Assembly (NCBI RefSeq): GCF_049337375.1
Contig: NZ_JBMPIV010000015.1
Length of the DNA: 64,000 nucleotides
Direction: 5' to 3' (one strand)
DNA from: Nannocystis pusilla
GTDB taxonomy: Bacteria > Myxococcota_A > Polyangia > Nannocystales > Nannocystaceae
Position 1 is the stretch's first letter, and the number at the start of each line of letters is the position of its first letter. Position numbers and translations under genes: made by a program. The notes under the pieces were generated by a model. It had not been told where the DNA came from. It searched no databases and saw nothing but the letters and a program-made list of their open reading frames with translations. Shown here piece by piece: positions 16,929-24,860 of this stretch.

Positions 16929-18263
16929 TCAGCGCGCCAGCAGGGCCCGGCGCAGCACGCTCGGGTGGAACAGGTCGCGGCTCGGGCGCATCAGGTGCAG
17001 GACCTCGATCAGGCGCAGGTAGAGCTCGGGCGAGCGGGTGGCGGCGGCGAAGATCCGGTCGACGAAGCGGTGCATGAGCTTGAGGCCGGGCGAGACCTTG
17101 CCGGTGGTGCCCGGCCAGCGCAGGTCGTCGCTGCTGGCGGTCATGAAGGCGGCGAGGTTGCCGGCGGCGAGGCGCTTCTGGAAGCGCAGGCCGAGCGGCT
17201 CGTGCGGGCGCGCGCGCAGGGCGGCGTCGAGGACCGTGGCGGCGACGGCGGCGACGCTCATGCCCTGGCCGTAGACGGGGTTGAGGGCGCAGGCGGCGTC
17301 GCCGAGGACGACGAAGCCGTCGGGCCAGCGGCGCAGGCGCTCGTAGTGGCGCAGGCGGTTCTCGGTCCTGCGATAGCCGTGGATGGCGGAGCAGGGCGTG
17401 GCGCCGACCAGGACTTCGCGCAGGGCGGGGGTCTCGAGCGCGCCGGCGAACTCGAGGAAGCCGGCCTCGTCGACCGGCGGGAACACGCCGCCGTAGCCGA
17501 CGAGGGTGACGATGTGACGCCCGCCCTCGACCGGGTAGACGACGCCGCCGCGCGGGTTCTTGCCCGGCTTGCCCATGGCGTAGAGGACCTTCCAGTCGGG
17601 TCGGGCGCGCAGCTCGTAGAGGCGGGTGGCGTAGCCGAGCTGGGCGTCGATGATGGTCTCGGGCGGCTCGGGATAGCCGAGCGCGGCCAGCCAGGTCGGG
17701 GCCTTGGAGGCGCGCCCGCCGGCGTCGACGACGAGGTCGGCGCGCAGCTCGTCGGCCGCGAGCTCGGGCGCGCCGGCGCGGCGGTGGACCTGGACGCCGA
17801 CGATCCGCTCGCCGGCCGCCTGCAAGCCGGTGACCTCGAGGCCGGAGTGGATGCGCACGCGCTCGTCGGCGACGAGGGCGGCGCGCACCTGGTACTCGAG
17901 CAGGCCGCGGGTGCAGGCGCGCGAGCGCAGCGGCGAGGGGACCCGCGGGGCCTGACCGAAGGGGGTGTGCCAGGCGACGTCGTCGAGCCAGTCGATCTCG
18001 TGGGCGCCCGCGGCCGCGAGGGCGTCGCCGAGGCCGGGGAACTGCTCGCTCAAGATCTTCCAGCCGCGCGTCAACAGGACGTGGACGTGGTGGCTCTGCG
18101 GCGCGCCGGCGCGCGGCTCGGGCCCGGCCGGCAAGCTGTCGCGATCGAGGAGAGTGACGCGCTCGAAGTGACGCGTGAGCACGCGGGCGGCGAGGAGGCC
18201 GGCGATCCCGGCGCCGATCACGATCGCGCGGCGAGGCGCCGACGCGGAGCCTGTTGTGGGCAT
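16929..18263 (-). CDS. FAD-dependent monooxygenase/oxidoreductase
   Basis: N-terminal Rossmann motif RRAIVIGAGIAGLLAARVL. 444 aa. DG and GD FAD-binding motifs (VDAGG, VVLGDAA). Confidence 0.75.
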   Translation of the reverse strand: MPTTGSASAPRRAIVIGAGIAGLLAARVLTRHFERVTLLDRDSLPAGPEPRAGAPQSHHVHVLLTRGWKILSEQFPGLGDALAAAGAHEIDWLDDVAWHTPFGQAPRVPSPLRSRACTRGLLEYQVRAALVADERVRIHSGLEVTGLQAAGERIVGVQVHRRAGAPELAADELRADLVVDAGGRASKAPTWLAALGYPEPPETIIDAQLGYATRLYELRARPDWKVLYAMGKPGKNPRGGVVYPVEGGRHIVTLVGYGGVFPPVDEAGFLEFAGALETPALREVLVGATPCSAIHGYRRTENRLRHYERLRRWPDGFVVLGDAACALNPVYGQGMSVAAVAATVLDAALRARPHEPLGLRFQKRLAAGNLAAFMTASSDDLRWPGTTGKVSPGLKLMHRFVDRIFAAATRSPELYLRLIEVLHLMRPSRDLFHPSVLRRALLAR

Positions 18264-18589: not shown

Positions 18590-18830
18590 GCGAGCGGGCA
18601 TGGAGCGCGGGTGCCGAGGCGGGGACGCGGCGGCGAACGGGCCGAGCTCGGGAGGCGAGCGACGGCCGCGAGCGGGCATGGAGCGCGGGTGCCGAGGCGG
18701 GGACGCGGCGGCGAACGGGCCGAGCTCGGGAGGCGAGCGACGGCCGCGAGCGGGCAGCGAGCGCGGGTGCCGAGGCGGGAGCGCGGCGGCGAACGGCCTG
18801 GGCTCGGCCGCGAGTCGGCCGGCTGCGGCA
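18590..18830. repeat. 78-bp tandem direct repeat, three copies
   Basis: The unit begins gggcatggagcgcgggtgccgaggcggggacgcggcggcgaacgggccgagctcggg. Copies start at about 18597, 18675 and 18753. It lies in a ~1 kb intergenic region that also carries CATG hairpins at 18350-18560 and 18900-18935. Confidence 0.75.
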
Positions 18831-19062
18831 TGACGCGGTTCGACGGGTAGGCGGTGGCTGGCTGAAGGGACAGGTTCGGCGCGGGCGCCGGGGTCGGTCC
18901 ATTATTAGATGTCCGAAGGGACATGTCGTCGCGGGCGACGCGGCGATCGGTGACACGCGAAAGGAGGTGATCGCAATCGCAGGTGTGGGATTGACGAGCC
19001 CACGAGCTTCCGCACGAGCGCTCGCCTTGACCGCTCCAGAGGCCGCGTGTATCCCCAAATCG

Positions 19063-19137
19063 ATGCTCCGGCGCGCCACCACCGCGACTACTACCACCAC
19101 CCTTCCGGGTGGGGTCGGTCGCGTGCGCGTGCGCTGA
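19063..19137 (+). promoter_or_regulatory. Thr-codon-rich leader peptide (MLRRATTATTTTTLPGGVGRVRVR), part of a putative transcription attenuator
   Basis: 24-codon ORF with 7 Thr codons (ACC/ACT) within 9 positions. It lies in a lower-GC leader about 110 nt upstream of the ThrRS-like gene. Confidence 0.55.
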
Positions 19138-19164
19138 GAGCTCTCGAGACACACGCCCTGCGAA

Positions 19165-19190
19165 GCCCCGCCCGAGCCGGCGGGGCTTTT
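19165..19190 (+). terminator. Intrinsic terminator/attenuator hairpin downstream of the Thr leader peptide
   Basis: GCCCCGCC cgagcc GGCGGGGC followed by TTTTG, between the leader stop (19137) and the thrS-like ATG (19249). Confidence 0.55.
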
Positions 19191-19248
19191 GCGCGCATGG
19201 TGGCGTCGCTCCGTCCGGCCGGTCCTTTCACCCCCGGAGACCGCCGCC

Positions 19249-20469
19249 ATGAGCCACGACATCAGCCCCCACTCCGTCCTCGACGCCCACGACCACCGCG
19301 CCCTCGGCCCTCGCCTCGGCCTGTTCCACCTGCAGGAAGAGGCGCCGGCGATGGTGTTCTGGCACCCCCGCGGCCTGGTCCTCGCCCGCGCGCTGGAAGA
19401 CGCGGCCCGCCGCCGCGCCAGCGCCGACGGCTATCACGAGGTCCGCACGCCGCAATTGCTGCGACAGCCGATCTGGGAGAAGAGCGGCCACTGGCAGCAC
19501 TTCCGTCAGGGAATGTTCGCAGTCGCCGACGAGGGCTGCTGCGCGGCGCTGAAGCCGGTGAGCTGCCCGGGTCACATCCAGATCGCCCAGCGCAGCGCGC
19601 TGTCGTACCGCGACCTGCCGCTGCGCCTGTGCGAGTTCGGCCTGTGCCACCGCGACGAGCCGAGCGGGACGCTGCACGGGCTGTTCCGCCTGCGCCAGTT
19701 CACGCAGGACGACGGCCACGTGTTCTGCGCTCCCGACCAGATCGCGGCCGAGATCGTGCGCTTCTGCCAGGGCGCCCGCAGGTTCTATGCGGGCTTCGGG
19801 TTCGATGACTTCGCGGTCGGGCTGTCGACGCGCCCGCCCGAGCGGGTCGGCGACGATGCGCTGTGGGACCGCGCGGAGGCGGAACTGGCTGCGGCGGCCC
19901 GCGAGGCGGGGCTCGATTACGTGGTGCAGCCGGGCGAAGGGGCGTTCTACGGGCCGAAGCTCGAGTTCTCGCTGCGCGACCGCCTCGGCCGGTCGTGGCA
20001 GTGCGGGACGATCCAGCTCGACTTCAACCTGCCGGAGCGCTTCGGGCTGCATTACATCGACGAGGCCGGCCAGCGCCGCCGCCCGGCGATGCTGCACCGG
20101 GCGATCTACGGCAGCCTCGAGCGCTTCCTGGCGATCGTGCTCGAGCACCACGCAGGCGCGCTGCCGGCCTGGCTGGCGCCCGTGCAAGTGGTGGTGGCGC
20201 CGGTGGGCCCGGCCCAGCAAGCGGCGGCGGAGGCGGCCGTGGCCGAGCTGCGCGCGGCGGGGATCCGGGTCGAGCTCGACGACCGCCGCGAGACGCTGGC
20301 CCGCCGCGTGGCGGAGGCGCACGCGCAAGGAGTGCCGATGCTGGCGGTAATCGGGGCGCGCGAGGCGAGCAGCGAGGCGCTGACGCTGCGGATCCGCGAG
20401 GAGCAGCAGGTGCTGCCGCGGGCTCAGGCGGTGGCGCAGATCGCGAGGCATTGCGCGCCGCCGGTGTGA
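19249..20469 (+). CDS. thrS: Threonine--tRNA ligase paralog, N-terminally truncated (catalytic core plus anticodon-binding domain only)
   Basis: Class II motifs match ThrRS: SCPGHIQ, LCHRDEPSGTLHGLFRLRQFTQDDGHVFC, HRAIYGSLERFLAIVLEHHAGALPAWLAPVQVVVAPV. Zn ligands Cys/His/His are conserved. 406 aa, against about 640 for full-length ThrRS; the TGS and editing domains are absent. Confidence 0.85.
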   Translation: MSHDISPHSVLDAHDHRALGPRLGLFHLQEEAPAMVFWHPRGLVLARALEDAARRRASADGYHEVRTPQLLRQPIWEKSGHWQHFRQGMFAVADEGCCAALKPVSCPGHIQIAQRSALSYRDLPLRLCEFGLCHRDEPSGTLHGLFRLRQFTQDDGHVFCAPDQIAAEIVRFCQGARRFYAGFGFDDFAVGLSTRPPERVGDDALWDRAEAELAAAAREAGLDYVVQPGEGAFYGPKLEFSLRDRLGRSWQCGTIQLDFNLPERFGLHYIDEAGQRRRPAMLHRAIYGSLERFLAIVLEHHAGALPAWLAPVQVVVAPVGPAQQAAAEAAVAELRAAGIRVELDDRRETLARRVAEAHAQGVPMLAVIGAREASSEALTLRIREEQQVLPRAQAVAQIARHCAPPV

Positions 20470-20982
20470 ACGGGCCCGACCTTCAAGAGCGGTGCGCGGG
20501 TCGCTCGGCGCGAGGCCAGCGCGATTCATCGCAGGCGGCGGCCGATTCATGCGAGTGATGGGAATCGTCGACTCGTCGTTCGAGTCGCTACCGGTAGCGA
20601 GCGCTCGCGCCGGGATCCGTCGATTCGCAAATGCACCGAGGAGGCGGCGAGCACGGGAGCTCGCCGCATGGGTCGTCGGTGTTTCGGCTGCGAACGGCAC
20701 GGCGGGATCGGGTGGTCGTCGCCGAGGGACTCGAGTGTCGAGAAACGCGACGCGGTGTTTCAAATTCGACAGCCGCGCGGAGGCGAGGGAGATCGCCCGG
20801 GCCGCGTGCGGCGGAGGTGGGGCGTCCGGGCCGCCGGCGGGCGCGAGAGACGGGCTCGCTGCGCGGCTGGGGGGCCGTAGCCGCGGGTCTGGCTCCGGGC
20901 GGCGGGCGAAGGCGCGCGTCGCGCTCCGGGCCATCTGCCACTCGTCGGCGGGACCGTGGTGAGCGACAGTCGGGCCCCCGGC

Positions 20983-22053
20983 ATGTCCGTAAACGTTCCC
21001 AAGCCCATCACCGCGCTCGAGGCGCTGGAGCGTGCGCAGTGGATCGCGTTCGCCCCGTTCGTGTTCCAGGCCACCCGCGTGCTGCGCGACCGCGGGATCC
21101 TCCTCGCCATCGAGCGCAGCCGCGAGGGCCTCACCCTCGAGGAGGTCGCGGCGGCGGCGGAGTTGCCGATCTACGGCACGCGCGTGGTGCTCGAGGCGGG
21201 GCTCGGGATCGGGCTCGTGACCGAGGTCGACGGCCGCTATCGCATCACCAAGACCGGCGTGTACGTGCAGCACGATCCGATGACGCGCGCCAACTTCGAC
21301 TTCGTGCGCGACGTGAACTACCACGGGATCGCGGGGCTCGACGCGGCGGTGGCGTCGGGCAAGCCGGAGGGGCTCAAGGTGTTCGGCGAGTGGCCGACGG
21401 TCTACGCCGGGCTGTCGCAATTGCCGGAGTCGGTGCGAAAGTCGTGGTTCCAGTTCGACCACTACTATTCCGACGGGGCGTTCGGCGCGGCGCTGCCGCT
21501 GGTGTTCGCGGGCAAGCCGAAGCGGCTGCTCGACATCGGCGGCAACACGGGCAAGTGGGCGGCGGCGTGCATGCGGCACGACCCCGACGTCGAGGTGACG
21601 CTGATGGACCTGCCGGGGCAGCTCCGCAACGCCGAGCAGAACCTGCGCGAGGCGGGGCTGCTGGCGCGGGCGCGCTTCCACGAGGCCGACCTGCTCGACG
21701 AACGCTCGCCGGTCCCGACCGACTTCGACGCGATCTGGATGAGCCAGTTCCTCGACTGCTTCTCCGAGGCCGAGATCGTGTCGATCCTGCGCCGCTGCGT
21801 CGCCGCGGCCGGGCCGAATTGCAAGATCTACATCCTCGAGGCGTTCTGGGACCGCCAGCGCTTCGAGGCCGCCAGCTTCTGCCTGCAGATGACGTCGCTG
21901 TACTTCACGGCGGTCGCCAACGGCACCAGCCAGATGTACCGCTCGACGACGTTCCTCGCGTGCGTCCACGCGGCCGGCCTCGAGATCGAGCGCGAGTACG
22001 ACGACCTCGGGGTCAGCCACACGCTGCTGGTGTGCCGCCCGCGACCGATGTGA
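20983..22053 (+). CDS. Class I SAM-dependent O-methyltransferase (natural-product type with N-terminal dimerisation domain)
   Basis: SAM-binding motif LLDIGGNTGKWAAAC with a downstream acidic motif. 356 aa. Typical small-molecule OMT architecture. Confidence 0.75.
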   Translation: MSVNVPKPITALEALERAQWIAFAPFVFQATRVLRDRGILLAIERSREGLTLEEVAAAAELPIYGTRVVLEAGLGIGLVTEVDGRYRITKTGVYVQHDPMTRANFDFVRDVNYHGIAGLDAAVASGKPEGLKVFGEWPTVYAGLSQLPESVRKSWFQFDHYYSDGAFGAALPLVFAGKPKRLLDIGGNTGKWAAACMRHDPDVEVTLMDLPGQLRNAEQNLREAGLLARARFHEADLLDERSPVPTDFDAIWMSQFLDCFSEAEIVSILRRCVAAAGPNCKIYILEAFWDRQRFEAASFCLQMTSLYFTAVANGTSQMYRSTTFLACVHAAGLEIEREYDDLGVSHTLLVCRPRPM

Positions 22054-22152
22054 CGCGCGCACGCGTGGGCTCGGCCCGCGGGTGAGGACGGGCGCCGCGT
22101 CCGATCGACGACCGCGGCGCCGCGGCGTGGGGCCGCGGTACGTTGACCGTGG

Positions 22153-23445
22153 ATGGTCGTCGCCGTGCTCGCGCTGCTGGCCGCCCCGGTCGTGACGCCG
22201 GGGCAGGACGCTCACTACCGGCTCGACAACGGGCTCGAGGTGATCCTCCGCCACGACCGACGCACACCGCTGGTGGCGGTGCGGCTGCGGGTCCACGCGG
22301 GCAGCGTCGACGATCCGCGCGATCGCAGCGGGCTGGCCCACGTGGTCGAGCACGTGGCGCACGAGGGTTCGGCGCACGTCGATCGCAACCGGCGCGAGGG
22401 CCTCGAGTACGCGCTGTCGGCCCACGCGAACAACGCGGAGACAGGGTTTTATGCCACCGAGTATTATTATACGGCGCCGGCGCAGGCGACCGAGCACGTG
22501 CTGTGGATCGAGGCCGATCGCCTCGGCTTCGTGCGCGGGCAGCACGGCGCGCCGACGCTGGCGGGCGTGCGACGGATCGTGCTCAACGAGCGGCGCCAGC
22601 GGGCCGAGCAAGATCCGCTGGCGCGGCTCGAGATCCAGGCGCTGACCGCGTTGTTCCCCACGGGGCACCCGTATCACGGGGCGATCATCGGCAGCGCCGA
22701 CGACCTGGCGGCGGCGACGATCGCCGACGTCGACGCGTTCCTCGATCGATGGGTGCATCCGGGCAACGCGACGCTGGTGCTGGTCGGCGATCTGCCGGCG
22801 GAGACGCCTGGGTGGATCGAGCGGCAATTCGGCGGCCTGCCGGCGCAGCCGCGACCGCCGGCGCGCACGGTGCCGCCGGTGAGGCGAGCGACCGAGCTGC
22901 GCGTGACGGCCGAACGAGCGGTGGGGGCGGCGCCTGCCGTGCTGATGGCCTGGCCGTCGCCGGCGCTCGACGGCGACGGCGACGCGACCGCCGACGTGCT
23001 GGCAGAGGCGCTGGAGCGCGGCGGATATGTCCGGCTGGCGCGCGCGGAGGGTCCGCCGGAGGCGGCCGAATTTCAGGCGACGCAGCGCAGTCTGCCGAAT
23101 CAGTCGGTGTTCTTCGTGCGGGTGATCGGCCGCGTCGGCGGCGATCCGGGGCGCCTCGTGGCAGAGGTCGATCGCGTGCTGGCTCGCGTGGCCGAGGGAG
23201 CGCTGGCGGAGCCGGCCGTGCGACGCGCCCGCTTGCGGATCGCGCGGGAGCATCGCAGCGTACAGCAAGACCTGCAGGACCGTGCGGCCCTGCTGGCGGC
23301 GGAGGCGGCCGCCGGGAAGCCGCTCGGTGGGGCGCAGGACGTCGCGGAGTGGATGGCGGTGACGCCCGCGGAGGTGGCTCGCTTCGCGCGCGAGGTGCTG
23401 CGGCCGGAAGGACGCGTGGCGGTGTTGGCGGAGGGGGAAGGATGA
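22153..23445 (+). CDS. M16 family zinc peptidase (catalytic subunit, inverted HxxEH motif)
   Basis: AHVVEHVAHEG zinc-binding motif and downstream E. Confidence 0.8.
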   Translation: MVVAVLALLAAPVVTPGQDAHYRLDNGLEVILRHDRRTPLVAVRLRVHAGSVDDPRDRSGLAHVVEHVAHEGSAHVDRNRREGLEYALSAHANNAETGFYATEYYYTAPAQATEHVLWIEADRLGFVRGQHGAPTLAGVRRIVLNERRQRAEQDPLARLEIQALTALFPTGHPYHGAIIGSADDLAAATIADVDAFLDRWVHPGNATLVLVGDLPAETPGWIERQFGGLPAQPRPPARTVPPVRRATELRVTAERAVGAAPAVLMAWPSPALDGDGDATADVLAEALERGGYVRLARAEGPPEAAEFQATQRSLPNQSVFFVRVIGRVGGDPGRLVAEVDRVLARVAEGALAEPAVRRARLRIAREHRSVQQDLQDRAALLAAEAAAGKPLGGAQDVAEWMAVTPAEVARFAREVLRPEGRVAVLAEGEG

Positions 23446-24791
23446 GGCGCGGAGGCGTCACGAGGGCGTGGTTGCTGGCGTGGCTCCTCGGCGCGTGCGC
23501 GAGCAATCAGTCGTGGCGGCACACTGCGCCGGAGCTACCGGTGGCGGCGCCGCCGGTGGTCGCGCCGCGGATCGAGCGGCTGGGGCCGTCGCTGCTGCAC
23601 GTGGGGCGGGCGGGGCCGACGACGGCGATCGGGCTGGTCTTGCGGACAGGTGCGGAGATCGATCCGCCGCTGGCGAGCTTCACCCTCGAGCTGCTGGCCC
23701 GCGGGCCCGATCGGGCCGTCGAGGACGCGCTCGGCGAGCTCGGCGGGGCGATCGAGGTGGTGTGGCTCGGAGACGGGGCGCTGCTGCGGGTCGAGGTCGA
23801 GGCGTCGGCGTGGCGCGAGGCGCTGGCGATCGTGACTGCGGCGCTGCGCGGCGCGGAGCTCACGGCGGAGGACGTCGAGGCGCTGCGGCGCGAGCGGCTG
23901 GCGGCCCAGCAGCGGCGCGACGGCGATCCGGCGAGGCGGGGGCTGCACTTGCTGCAGCGCCGCCTGGCCCCGCGGCTCGACGCGCTCGGGGAGGCGCGCG
24001 CGACCGCGGGCTATACGATCGAACATGTCCGAAAAGCGCAGGAGCAGTGGCTGCGGGCCCGGCCGGCGCTGGTGGTCGTCGGGGAGGCGCCGCGGGCCGA
24101 GCTCGCGCGGGCGGCCGCGGGGGCGCTGGGCGAGTGGCCGGGGTCGTCCGACATGCCCGCGCCCGCGCCCGAGCTTGCGACGGCGCGCCGCGAGGTGCTG
24201 GTGGTGCCGCGACCGGGGCTGGCCCAGACTGCCATCGTGGTGGGTCGAGCGATCGCCGGCGACGCCGACGACCTCGCGCTCGAGCTGGCGTCGGCCGTGG
24301 TCGGCTCGGCCCTGCGCGAGGTGCTTCGGCGCGATCGCGGCGACACGTACAGCGTGGCGGTGAGCCACGCGCCGGTCCGGGGCGGCGGAATGCTGGCGAT
24401 CGAGACCCAGGTCGACGCGGCCGCCACCGGTTCGTCGCTGCGGGCCATGCTCTCGCAGCTGAAGGCGGCGCAGGGCCGCTTCTTGACCGGAGACGTGCTG
24501 CGCCTGCTCGGCCGCGCGTTCCAGGTCGAGCGCATGCTGGAGCACCAGCGACTTGCCGCCGTCATCGAGGCGGTGGCGCGGCTGCAGGTGGCGGGGCGGC
24601 CCGACGACGCCCTGGCGGCCGAGCTGCGCCGGCTCGGGGGCGTGCGCGACGACGACGTCGAGCGCGCGCTGGCGCGGTGGTTCGAGCCGGCAGCGATGCA
24701 GGTGGTGCTGGTCGGCGATCCCGCGACGATCCGCGCCCAGGTCGAGCCGCTCGGGCTCGGGCCGCTCAAGGTGATCGACGACGGGATCTGA
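23442..24791 (+). CDS. M16 family peptidase, lipoprotein, probably the non-catalytic partner subunit
   Basis: ATGA overlap with the preceding M16 gene. Lipobox LLGAC. M16 fold features without the HxxEH motif. Confidence 0.7.
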   Translation: MRRGGVTRAWLLAWLLGACASNQSWRHTAPELPVAAPPVVAPRIERLGPSLLHVGRAGPTTAIGLVLRTGAEIDPPLASFTLELLARGPDRAVEDALGELGGAIEVVWLGDGALLRVEVEASAWREALAIVTAALRGAELTAEDVEALRRERLAAQQRRDGDPARRGLHLLQRRLAPRLDALGEARATAGYTIEHVRKAQEQWLRARPALVVVGEAPRAELARAAAGALGEWPGSSDMPAPAPELATARREVLVVPRPGLAQTAIVVGRAIAGDADDLALELASAVVGSALREVLRRDRGDTYSVAVSHAPVRGGGMLAIETQVDAAATGSSLRAMLSQLKAAQGRFLTGDVLRLLGRAFQVERMLEHQRLAAVIEAVARLQVAGRPDDALAAELRRLGGVRDDDVERALARWFEPAAMQVVLVGDPATIRAQVEPLGLGPLKVIDDGI

Positions 24792-24860
24792 ATGATAGGA
24801 CATGTCATTTGTGACATGTCGGAAATATAAGTGTCACAAGGACATGTCTTGAAGAACATG
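24790..24860. repeat. AT-richer CATG-core hairpin cluster between convergent genes
   Basis: GGACATGTCatttgTGACATGTCgg...GGACATGTCttgaagaACATGTCC. Confidence 0.7.

Follow-up and report, generated by a model that had tools for sequence, protein, structure and literature searches.

A probable threonine leader-peptide attenuator with a translational relay upstream of a short threonyl-tRNA synthetase gene in Nannocystis pusilla

Leader attenuators of synthetase genes and the Nannocystis locus

Threonyl-tRNA synthetase (ThrRS) genes are known from several modes of control. The E. coli enzyme binds tRNA-like hairpins near the ribosome-binding site of its own thrS mRNA and represses translation. In Bacillus subtilis, the second ThrRS gene, thrZ, is said to be under control of a T-box, and in Streptomyces coelicolor the auxiliary synthetase gene trpRS1 reportedly lies under an attenuator in its leader. 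Leader-peptide attenuation acts on E. coli pheST and has been predicted for Streptomyces trpS and leuS (PMC1262725). A His-rich leader peptide was found computationally upstream of the hisS paralogs hisZ and hisS* in bacilli (PMC2965389), and in Streptomyces lividans TK24, thrS was found by RNA-seq to be preceded by a leaderless thrL (MKRVRPFLETTPGFVPAR) and a hairpin that has no U-tract (PMC8079986). Here, we analyse a 64-kb stretch of the Nannocystis pusilla genome (contig NZ_JBMPIV010000015.1, in the following "the window"), in which a short form of thrS is preceded by a small open reading frame (ORF) rich in Thr codons. This leader is most probably a leader-peptide attenuator: by way of the translating ribosome it would sense charged tRNA-Thr, and with the help of a translational relay it would control a ThrRS which is short, poor in threonine and devoid of the editing domain. 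The first-pass annotation of this DNA had called a Thr-leader attenuator on a ThrRS gene unusual; given that leader-peptide attenuators are documented or predicted for several synthetase genes, it is less so. Literature searches for a Thr leader associated with thrS in myxobacteria found no description in the searchable literature.

We number the paired segments of the leader RNA from 1 to 6 in 5' to 3' direction. The logic of 1:2, 2:3 and 3:4 pairings, with the regulatory codons overlapping segment 1, is that of E. coli pheM-pheST and of the enterobacterial thrL-thrABC leader, and the precedent of pheST indicates that synthetase genes can be under such control. Whereas thrL acts on the thr biosynthetic operon, the target in the window is a synthetase. 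Unlike in both systems, the leader ORF is apparently leaderless, and an extra relay of 4:5 and 5:6 pairings leads to the Shine-Dalgarno (SD) sequence. With S. coelicolor trpRS1 and Streptomyces trpS and leuS, the locus shares a short ORF rich in cognate codons and a terminator/antiterminator before a synthetase gene in a high-G+C soil bacterium. These Streptomyces leaders have an auxiliary synthetase as target, belong to another amino acid and another phylum, and exhibit no sequence similarity to the window leader. In contrast to trpRS1, the target in the window has no editing domain, and a third hairpin pair ties the switch to the ribosome-binding site; trpRS1 has experimental support, whereas the window leader is known from its sequence and computed folding alone.

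A functional analogue is B. subtilis thrZ, a second ThrRS gene induced as the charging of tRNA-Thr falls. It differs in that the T-box reads uncharged tRNA directly, with no translating ribosome, and in that ThrZ is full length. In translational attenuation of the ermC/cat type, a ribosome stalled in the leader ORF likewise rearranges hairpins such that the downstream SD is exposed, but the stall arises from an antibiotic and the nascent peptide, not from shortage of charged tRNA, and no terminator takes part. The leader of the bacilli hisS paralogs is similar as a cognate-codon-rich leader found computationally before duplicated synthetase genes; it differs in amino acid and phylum, and hisZ is not a synthetase in function. 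S. lividans thrL-thrS also has a leaderless short Thr-codon ORF before a threonine-tRNA ligase gene, and its hairpin without clear U-tract is a trait shared with most relatives of the window element. However, thrL (MKRVRPFLETTPGFVPAR) has two Thr codons only, compared to 4-8 consecutive ones in the myxobacterial leaders, with no apparent homology, and no alternative-structure analysis is reported for it (PMC8079986).

Judged from its sequence, the window element exhibits the testable defining features of leader-peptide attenuators, and no curated family matches it. Rfam at gathering score returned 0 families, both for the window and for six related loci; at E < 10, the leader region 18800-19300 gave no match to the Thr leader (RF00506), but terminator-like matches at chance level alone. 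The element stands out by its target, a truncated, Thr-poor ThrRS, by its apparently leaderless start, and by the additional 4:5/5:6 relay.

The Thr-codon leader ORF and the short thrS gene

The leader ORF (MLRRATTATTTTTLPGGVGRVRVR*) is located on the + strand at 19063..19137 and comprises 24 codons plus stop, with ATG at 19063 and TGA at 19135-19137. Seven residues of the predicted peptide are threonine (T6, T7 and T9-T13; 7/24 codons). The regulatory Thr codons, ACC ACC (GCG) ACT ACT ACC ACC ACC, are read from the sequence at 19078..19101 (+), with ACC ACC at 19078-19083 and ACT ACT ACC ACC ACC at 19087-19101. This is in good agreement with the first-pass annotation, which had pointed out a 24-codon, Thr-rich ORF with 7 Thr codons in 9 positions. 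When all six frames of the window are scanned for at least 7 Thr codons in 9, only the leader ORF and one further place, at 35430(-), are found, and 0 of 100 dinucleotide shuffles of the window contain any. The other place belongs to a 190-aa ORF (35248-35820, -), which has a zinc-ribbon-like N-terminus (CPEC...CPFCGH) and a low-complexity tail rich in Thr, Ser and Asp (GDTTTTTGDTSTTTNTTPGTTTTTTTN).

A genome scan for related genes resulted in 30 short-form loci and 50 full-length loci, the latter mostly betaproteobacterial. The short-form loci come from Nannocystis, Sorangium, Byssovorax, Myxococcus, Citreicoccus, Kofleriaceae, metagenome-assembled genomes (MAGs) of Polyangia, Desertibaculum, and MAGs labelled Steroidobacteraceae, Holophagaceae and Pseudomonadota. 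Proteins of about 400 aa like the window enzyme are common in Myxococcota. In 30/30 short-form loci, the gene is preceded by an ORF in which 4-8 Thr codons follow one another; these loci cover at least 4 myxobacterial families and a few other lineages, so the conservation of the leader, which had been named as a check, holds. Among full-length thrS control loci, only 2/47 have a run of at least 4 Thr upstream. The leader peptides of the family have 16-28 residues, mostly 24, with Thr at roughly positions 6-13 and usually R/L-x-G-G thereafter. In every short-form locus except L025, a Polyangia MAG (1541-1952) where the Thr leader lies 295 nt upstream of thrS, 84-120 nt separate the leader stop from the thrS start. 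Of the last 22 leader codons in the family, 32% encode threonine, as ACC (53%), ACG (34%) or ACT (13%). Such synonymous variation at the third position is what selection on decoding, rather than on the RNA sequence, would be expected to leave.

Upstream of the leader ORF, a putative promoter can be delineated on the + strand. A -35 hexamer TTGACC (19027..19032), of a TTGAC/TTGC type conserved in relatives, is followed after a 17-nt spacer by a putative -10 hexamer TATCCC (19050..19055), which leaves 7 nt to the leader ATG. The same geometry recurs across families: approximately 26 of 30 loci carry a TTGAC/TTGC-type hexamer 35-39 nt before the leader start codon and a TAnnnN hexamer which follows after a spacer of 17 nt and ends 6-10 nt before ATG/GTG. 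A consensus promoter/terminator scan gave no match on the + strand, its criteria being stricter than this -10 hexamer and the U-tract. We infer that transcription starts at about 19062-19063, at or beside the leader ATG, and that the leader ORF is leaderless or nearly so. A leaderless start would account for the lack of an SD before the leader ATG. G+C content drops to 0.63-0.70 across 18800-19200, compared to 0.73-0.82 on the flanks and 73% in the window overall. The low-GC region had been described as a leader of about 300 nt; the dip is real, but its part at 18940-19060 probably consists of promoter and divergent intergenic DNA, not of transcribed leader.

The thrS gene itself (19249..20469, +) is 99% identical to a Nannocystis pusilla record in the genome scan. 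It begins one position before the 19250 initially given for its ATG, and the start codon downstream of the leader is otherwise as described. The product, 406 aa long, consists of the catalytic core and the anticodon-binding domain (tRNA-synt_2b and HGTP_anticodon, nothing else in Pfam). It scores 456.7 bits against the NCBIfam equivalog TIGR00418 (thrS; cut-off 383.65) and covers model positions 170-548 of 565. In alignment it corresponds to residues 242-612 of E. coli ThrRS, the region crystallised as N-terminally truncated enzyme. Both Pfam and this alignment agree with the initial description of a truncated ThrRS. The TGS and editing (N2) domains are missing: the protein aligns only from residue 242 of the E. 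coli enzyme and from model position 170 onwards. A tblastn search of the 64-kb window with a full-length ThrRS query matched residues 269-637 only, and the N-terminal domain was found nowhere in the window. The motifs CPGH, QDDGH and HRA are intact when aligned with solved ThrRS structures, where the zinc ligands lie, so that class II core, zinc-site motifs and anticodon-binding domain of a threonine-tRNA ligase are all present. It is therefore plausible, as far as the sequence tells, that the short protein is an active ThrRS minus its editing half.

The composition of the protein fits the proposed control. Only 7 of 406 residues are threonine (1.7%), the family mean is 1.9%, and the Myxococcus xanthus protein has 3 in 400; for comparison, threonine content is 3.3% in the equivalent region of full-length ThrRS and 4.7% in 16 other ORFs of the window. 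Low threonine content makes sense for a protein that is needed while Thr-tRNA is limiting.

Competing pairings in the leader RNA

Between the last Thr codons and the start of thrS, the + strand RNA carries the six segments, alternately C-rich and G-rich as in the alignment of 29 leaders (A1) on which all pair counts were made. Segment 1 (ACCACCACCC, 19093..19102), formed by the last Thr codons, pairs with segment 2 (CGGGUGGGGU, 19106..19115) in the minimum free energy (MFE) structure unless a ribosome covers it. Segment 2 may alternatively pair with segment 3 (GCGAAGCCCCGCCCG, 19160..19174, containing CCCCGCC) as an antiterminator, and a hairpin around the leader stop codon (19119..19163) is then nested within the 2:3 helix, as seen in the stalled-state MFE structure. 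Segment 3 also provides the 5' arm of the terminator. Its 3' arm is segment 4 (GGCGGGGC plus UUUU at 19187-19190; 19179..19192, with the arm at 19179-19186), which can alternatively pair with segment 5 (CAUGGUGGCG...CUCCG, 19196..19219). Segment 5 contains CUCCG, an anti-SD motif, and CAUGGUGGCG, whose partner is the start-codon region; in the ON state, 19208-19219 are paired to segment 4. Segment 6 (19235..19251) holds the thrS SD, GGAG at 19236-19239, and the ATG at 19249-19251, and is sequestered in the OFF state.

The 3:4 pairing gives a terminator-like hairpin at 19160-19192, GCGAAGCCCCGCC-CGAGCC-GGCGGGGC-UUUU-GC, with -23.4 kcal/mol, starting 22 nt past the leader stop. A GC-rich hairpin with TTTTG had been placed at 19165-19190; hairpin and UUUU are present, but the structure extends further on both sides. 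The competing helices are calculated at -14.5 kcal/mol for the 1:2 core, -40.4 for the 2:3 helix with the stop-codon hairpin, -26.7 for 5:6 and -25.4 for 4:5. For the 161-nt leader, the folding energy is -89.3 kcal/mol (z = -4.7 versus shuffles), and the free RNA adopts 1:2, 3:4 and 5:6 at -104.6 kcal/mol.

We modelled a stalled ribosome in a crude way: everything from the 5' end up to 13 nt beyond the first base of the A-site codon was masked, and the remainder was folded at equilibrium. The free window RNA has P(3:4) = 0.99 and P(2:3) = 0. When the A site is put at Thr codons 9-11, P(2:3) rises to 0.96 and P(3:4) falls to 0.04; a 4:5 helix then forms as well, and the AUG is released. The switch depends on the native sequence: in RNA truncated just past the terminator, P(3:4) is 0.99 when free, 0.01 when stalled, and 0.91 when stalled with segment 2 shuffled. 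A mutually exclusive antiterminator, which the first-pass annotation had suggested looking for, therefore exists (19106-19115 with 19165-19174, within the terminator 5' arm), and in constrained folding it arises only with the Thr codons masked by the ribosome. Across the family, the mean P(3:4) in the stalled state is 0.39 for native versus 0.77 for shuffled sequences (Wilcoxon p = 8e-5).

The stall also affects the ribosome-binding site. In the window, the cost of opening the thrS SD-to-AUG region decreases from 14.7 kcal/mol in the free to 5.4 in the stalled RNA, a drop of 9.4 which 0/12 shuffles of segments 2-4 equal. The corresponding drop in the family is 4.8 kcal/mol for native versus 2.0 for shuffled sequences (p = 9e-5). 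The thrS SD is paired in the MFE structure of 29/29 family members, and its unpaired probability is 0.08 versus 0.25 in shuffles (p = 2e-6).

We propose the following course of events. Transcription would start at or beside the leader ATG at 19063. While Thr-tRNA is plentiful, the ribosome would pass the Thr codons and reach the stop codon at 19135; segment 1 would re-pair with segment 2 behind it, and the 3:4 hairpin with its UUUU would end transcription. Any read-through RNA would keep the thrS SD and AUG buried by the 5:6 pairing. When Thr-tRNA is scarce, which we take as the likely physiological inducer, the ribosome would be halted on Thr codons 9-11 with segment 1 covered. The 2:3 antiterminator could then form and let RNA polymerase read through, and the freed segment 4 would take segment 5, the anti-SD, and leave the thrS start region exposed. 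As one stall would both expose the start and prevent termination, transcription and translation would be released together. The initial proposal of classical transcription attenuation is thus supported, but it probably covers half of the mechanism, the SD/AUG-sequestering hairpin being coupled to the switch. If correct, this is a compact design, in which a single predicted stall governs termination as well as start-site exposure.

Relatives of the element and competing explanations

The pairings of the window leader are conserved in alignment A1. Helix 2:3 is paired in 81% of cells (slid controls 39-54%) with little covariation, helix 3:4 in 88% (slid controls 39-55%) with compensatory changes in three pairs, and helix 1:2 in 84% (slid controls 49-65%) with no covariation. 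RNAalifold on the family picks 2:3 and 4:5, the register alternative to the free window fold. The segment 2 core is nearly invariant at the nucleotide level, reading GGCGGG in most other lineages and GGGUGG in Nannocystis, which points to a constraint at the RNA level.

Several observations weigh against the proposed attenuator. The U-tract in the window consists of merely 4 U followed by GC, and a simple terminator scan misses the hairpin, as it requires 5 T in 8 where 4 are present. The switch is confined to stalls at Thr 9-11: the terminator persists when the ribosome is placed on either of the first two or either of the last two Thr codons, and this result hinges on the assumed ribosome reach of 13 nt. 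Approximately one third of the family members do not switch in the crude equilibrium model. True covariation is weak in the paired segments, because they are nearly invariant. The pairing of the SD has a high background in G+C-rich RNA, remaining at about 75% after shuffling. For the lack of an SD before the leader ATG, the presumed leaderless start is the sole explanation. Finally, about two thirds of the relatives carry no U-tract (most Sorangium as well as Myxococcus, Citreicoccus, Kofleriaceae and Byssovorax), and termination may thus not be the conserved output.

The last point leads to the strongest competitor, purely translational control, in which a stall would trigger 2:3 and then 4:5 and free the thrS SD and AUG, with 3:4 serving as a relay element and not as a terminator. 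A U-tract of at least 4 U after the hairpin is found in only about 10 of 29 family members; U-runs occur in N. pusilla, N. exedens, N. punicea and loci L013, L016, L017, L024 and L031. Together with the window hairpin escaping the simple terminator scan, this speaks for translational control, as do the SD-sequestering hairpin in 29/29 sequences and the stall-dependent opening of the ribosome-binding site, which is specific to the native sequence. On the other hand, the window and its closest relatives combine a hairpin of -23 kcal/mol with UUUU directly after it, and L017 and L031 have the U-tract but no translational relay in folding, a pattern that suggests termination as a real output in some lineages. 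We therefore regard purely translational control as a serious alternative for the relatives without U, and as less likely for the window with its hairpin and UUUU; as an account of the element in general, it appears unlikely.

Attenuation by Rho or polarity is less probable still. Here, Rho would end the untranslated RNA after the ribosome is released at the stop codon, and a stall or an alternative fold would block its loading. Such a mechanism would suit the many family members without U-tract and the C-rich segments 3 and 5, and Rho-dependent leader-peptide systems are known, Rho having been proposed for mycobacterial cys leaders (PMC1262725). However, the spacer of about 110 nt is strongly structured and hence a poor loading site, no rut-like unstructured C-rich tract was identified in it, and a polarity model needs no precisely conserved alternative pairings.

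We consider it very improbable that the leader is a protein-binding operator, where ThrRS would bind tRNA-Thr-like hairpins by its own ribosome-binding site and repress translation, with the Thr ORF being incidental. The short enzyme has retained its anticodon-binding domain, and the hairpins do adjoin the SD. But the conserved loops comprise 4-6 nt (UUCC/ACCG, CGAGCC/GAU) with no conserved NGU anticodon-like triplet, and the features of the E. coli thrS operator, an NGU triplet in a 7-nt loop and anticodon-arm-like hairpins, were not found in the leader. Furthermore, an operator leaves unexplained the in-frame ACN run with its synonymous variation, the conserved start and stop codons, and the ORF length. 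Lastly, the idea of a T-box-like RNA that reads tRNA through an ACC specifier, or of a chance ORF beside a hairpin, can practically be dismissed: T-boxes reportedly control thrS and thrZ in Bacillus and the GGGUGG of Nannocystis segment 2 superficially resembles the T-box core, but GGCGGG replaces it in other lineages, no T-box match occurs in 18800-19300 even at E < 10, the element of about 187 nt, 75 of them ORF, is far too short for Stem I plus antiterminator, and chance is excluded by the 30/30 conservation and the shuffles.

For the leader-peptide attenuator as proposed, the genomic context of the relatives is informative. The genes infC, rplT or pheS lie within 4 kb in 0/31 short-form loci, compared to 47, 44 and 40 of 50 full-length loci, which places the short thrS outside the canonical thrS-infC-rplT-pheST context throughout. 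This context, the missing editing domain and the low threonine content are indirect signs that the gene may be a paralog, as the first-pass annotation had it. M. xanthus and Sorangium are among the entries for other synthetases in the duplication table of PMC4787780. The flanking genes are not conserved outside Nannocystis, and leader and short thrS thus seem to travel as one self-contained module. This module is also found in records labelled Alphaproteobacteria, Steroidobacteraceae, Holophagaceae and Pseudomonadota (L031 Desertibaculum subflavum, L022, L045, L065, L017), which suggests that either the module has spread horizontally as a whole or MAG contigs have been mis-binned. As a tentative generalisation, more doubtful than the attenuator itself, myxobacteria and a few apparent acquirers may possess an "emergency ThrRS" module, in which a leaderless Thr-sensing peptide and a three-hairpin transcription/translation relay would drive an editing-less, nearly Thr-free ThrRS.

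If the enzyme is active and unedited, its induction would trade Thr/Ser fidelity for continued translation in starvation. An alternative role, if true, would be an inducible insensitivity to antibiotics with which competitors target ThrRS. The leader offers a handle on the role of the widespread short, editing-less myxobacterial ThrRS as a response to low Thr-tRNA charging. In lineages without U-tract, the same leader would, if the relay holds, be purely translational and represent an amino-acid-sensing translational attenuator. The drift from terminator to non-terminator hairpin among the relatives would provide a natural series for attenuators moving between transcriptional and translational control. 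The element adds a well-conserved, uncurated candidate family of cis-regulatory RNAs to Myxococcota, a phylum with very few RNA switches described. Annotation would gain as well, since leader ORFs and start codons of short thrS genes are currently called inconsistently.

The neighbourhood of the module in the window shows a few further features. Downstream of thrS, the region 20881-24814 contains a gene similar to FlxJ-family methyltransferases (NCBIfam NF053543, 491 bits, below the cut-off of 560), an M16 peptidase gene (22153-23445) and a 448-aa ORF (23468-24814) with no Pfam or NCBIfam match. Together with an upstream halogenase-like gene, these could form a small natural-product cluster, conserved in Nannocystis only. 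We rejected the idea that the leader ORF is the precursor of a ribosomally synthesised and post-translationally modified peptide (RiPP) tied to the halogenase-like, methyltransferase and M16 peptidase genes, as this neighbourhood is restricted to Nannocystis while the link to thrS is conserved beyond it. A 78-bp tandem repeat (18590-18807) with 2.8 copies of 95% identity, G-rich on the + strand, is located in the interval that separates the thrS leader from the divergent FAD-oxidoreductase/halogenase-like gene. On the - strand it would encode a Pro/Arg-rich repeat of 26 aa, which is doubtful given the flat codon-position G+C. In the region 18901-18929, a palindrome, ATGTCC-GAAG-GGACAT (18910-18925), overlaps a promoter-like site on the - strand (ACGACA-17-AATAAT) and may be the operator of the divergent gene at 16929 to about 18300 (-).

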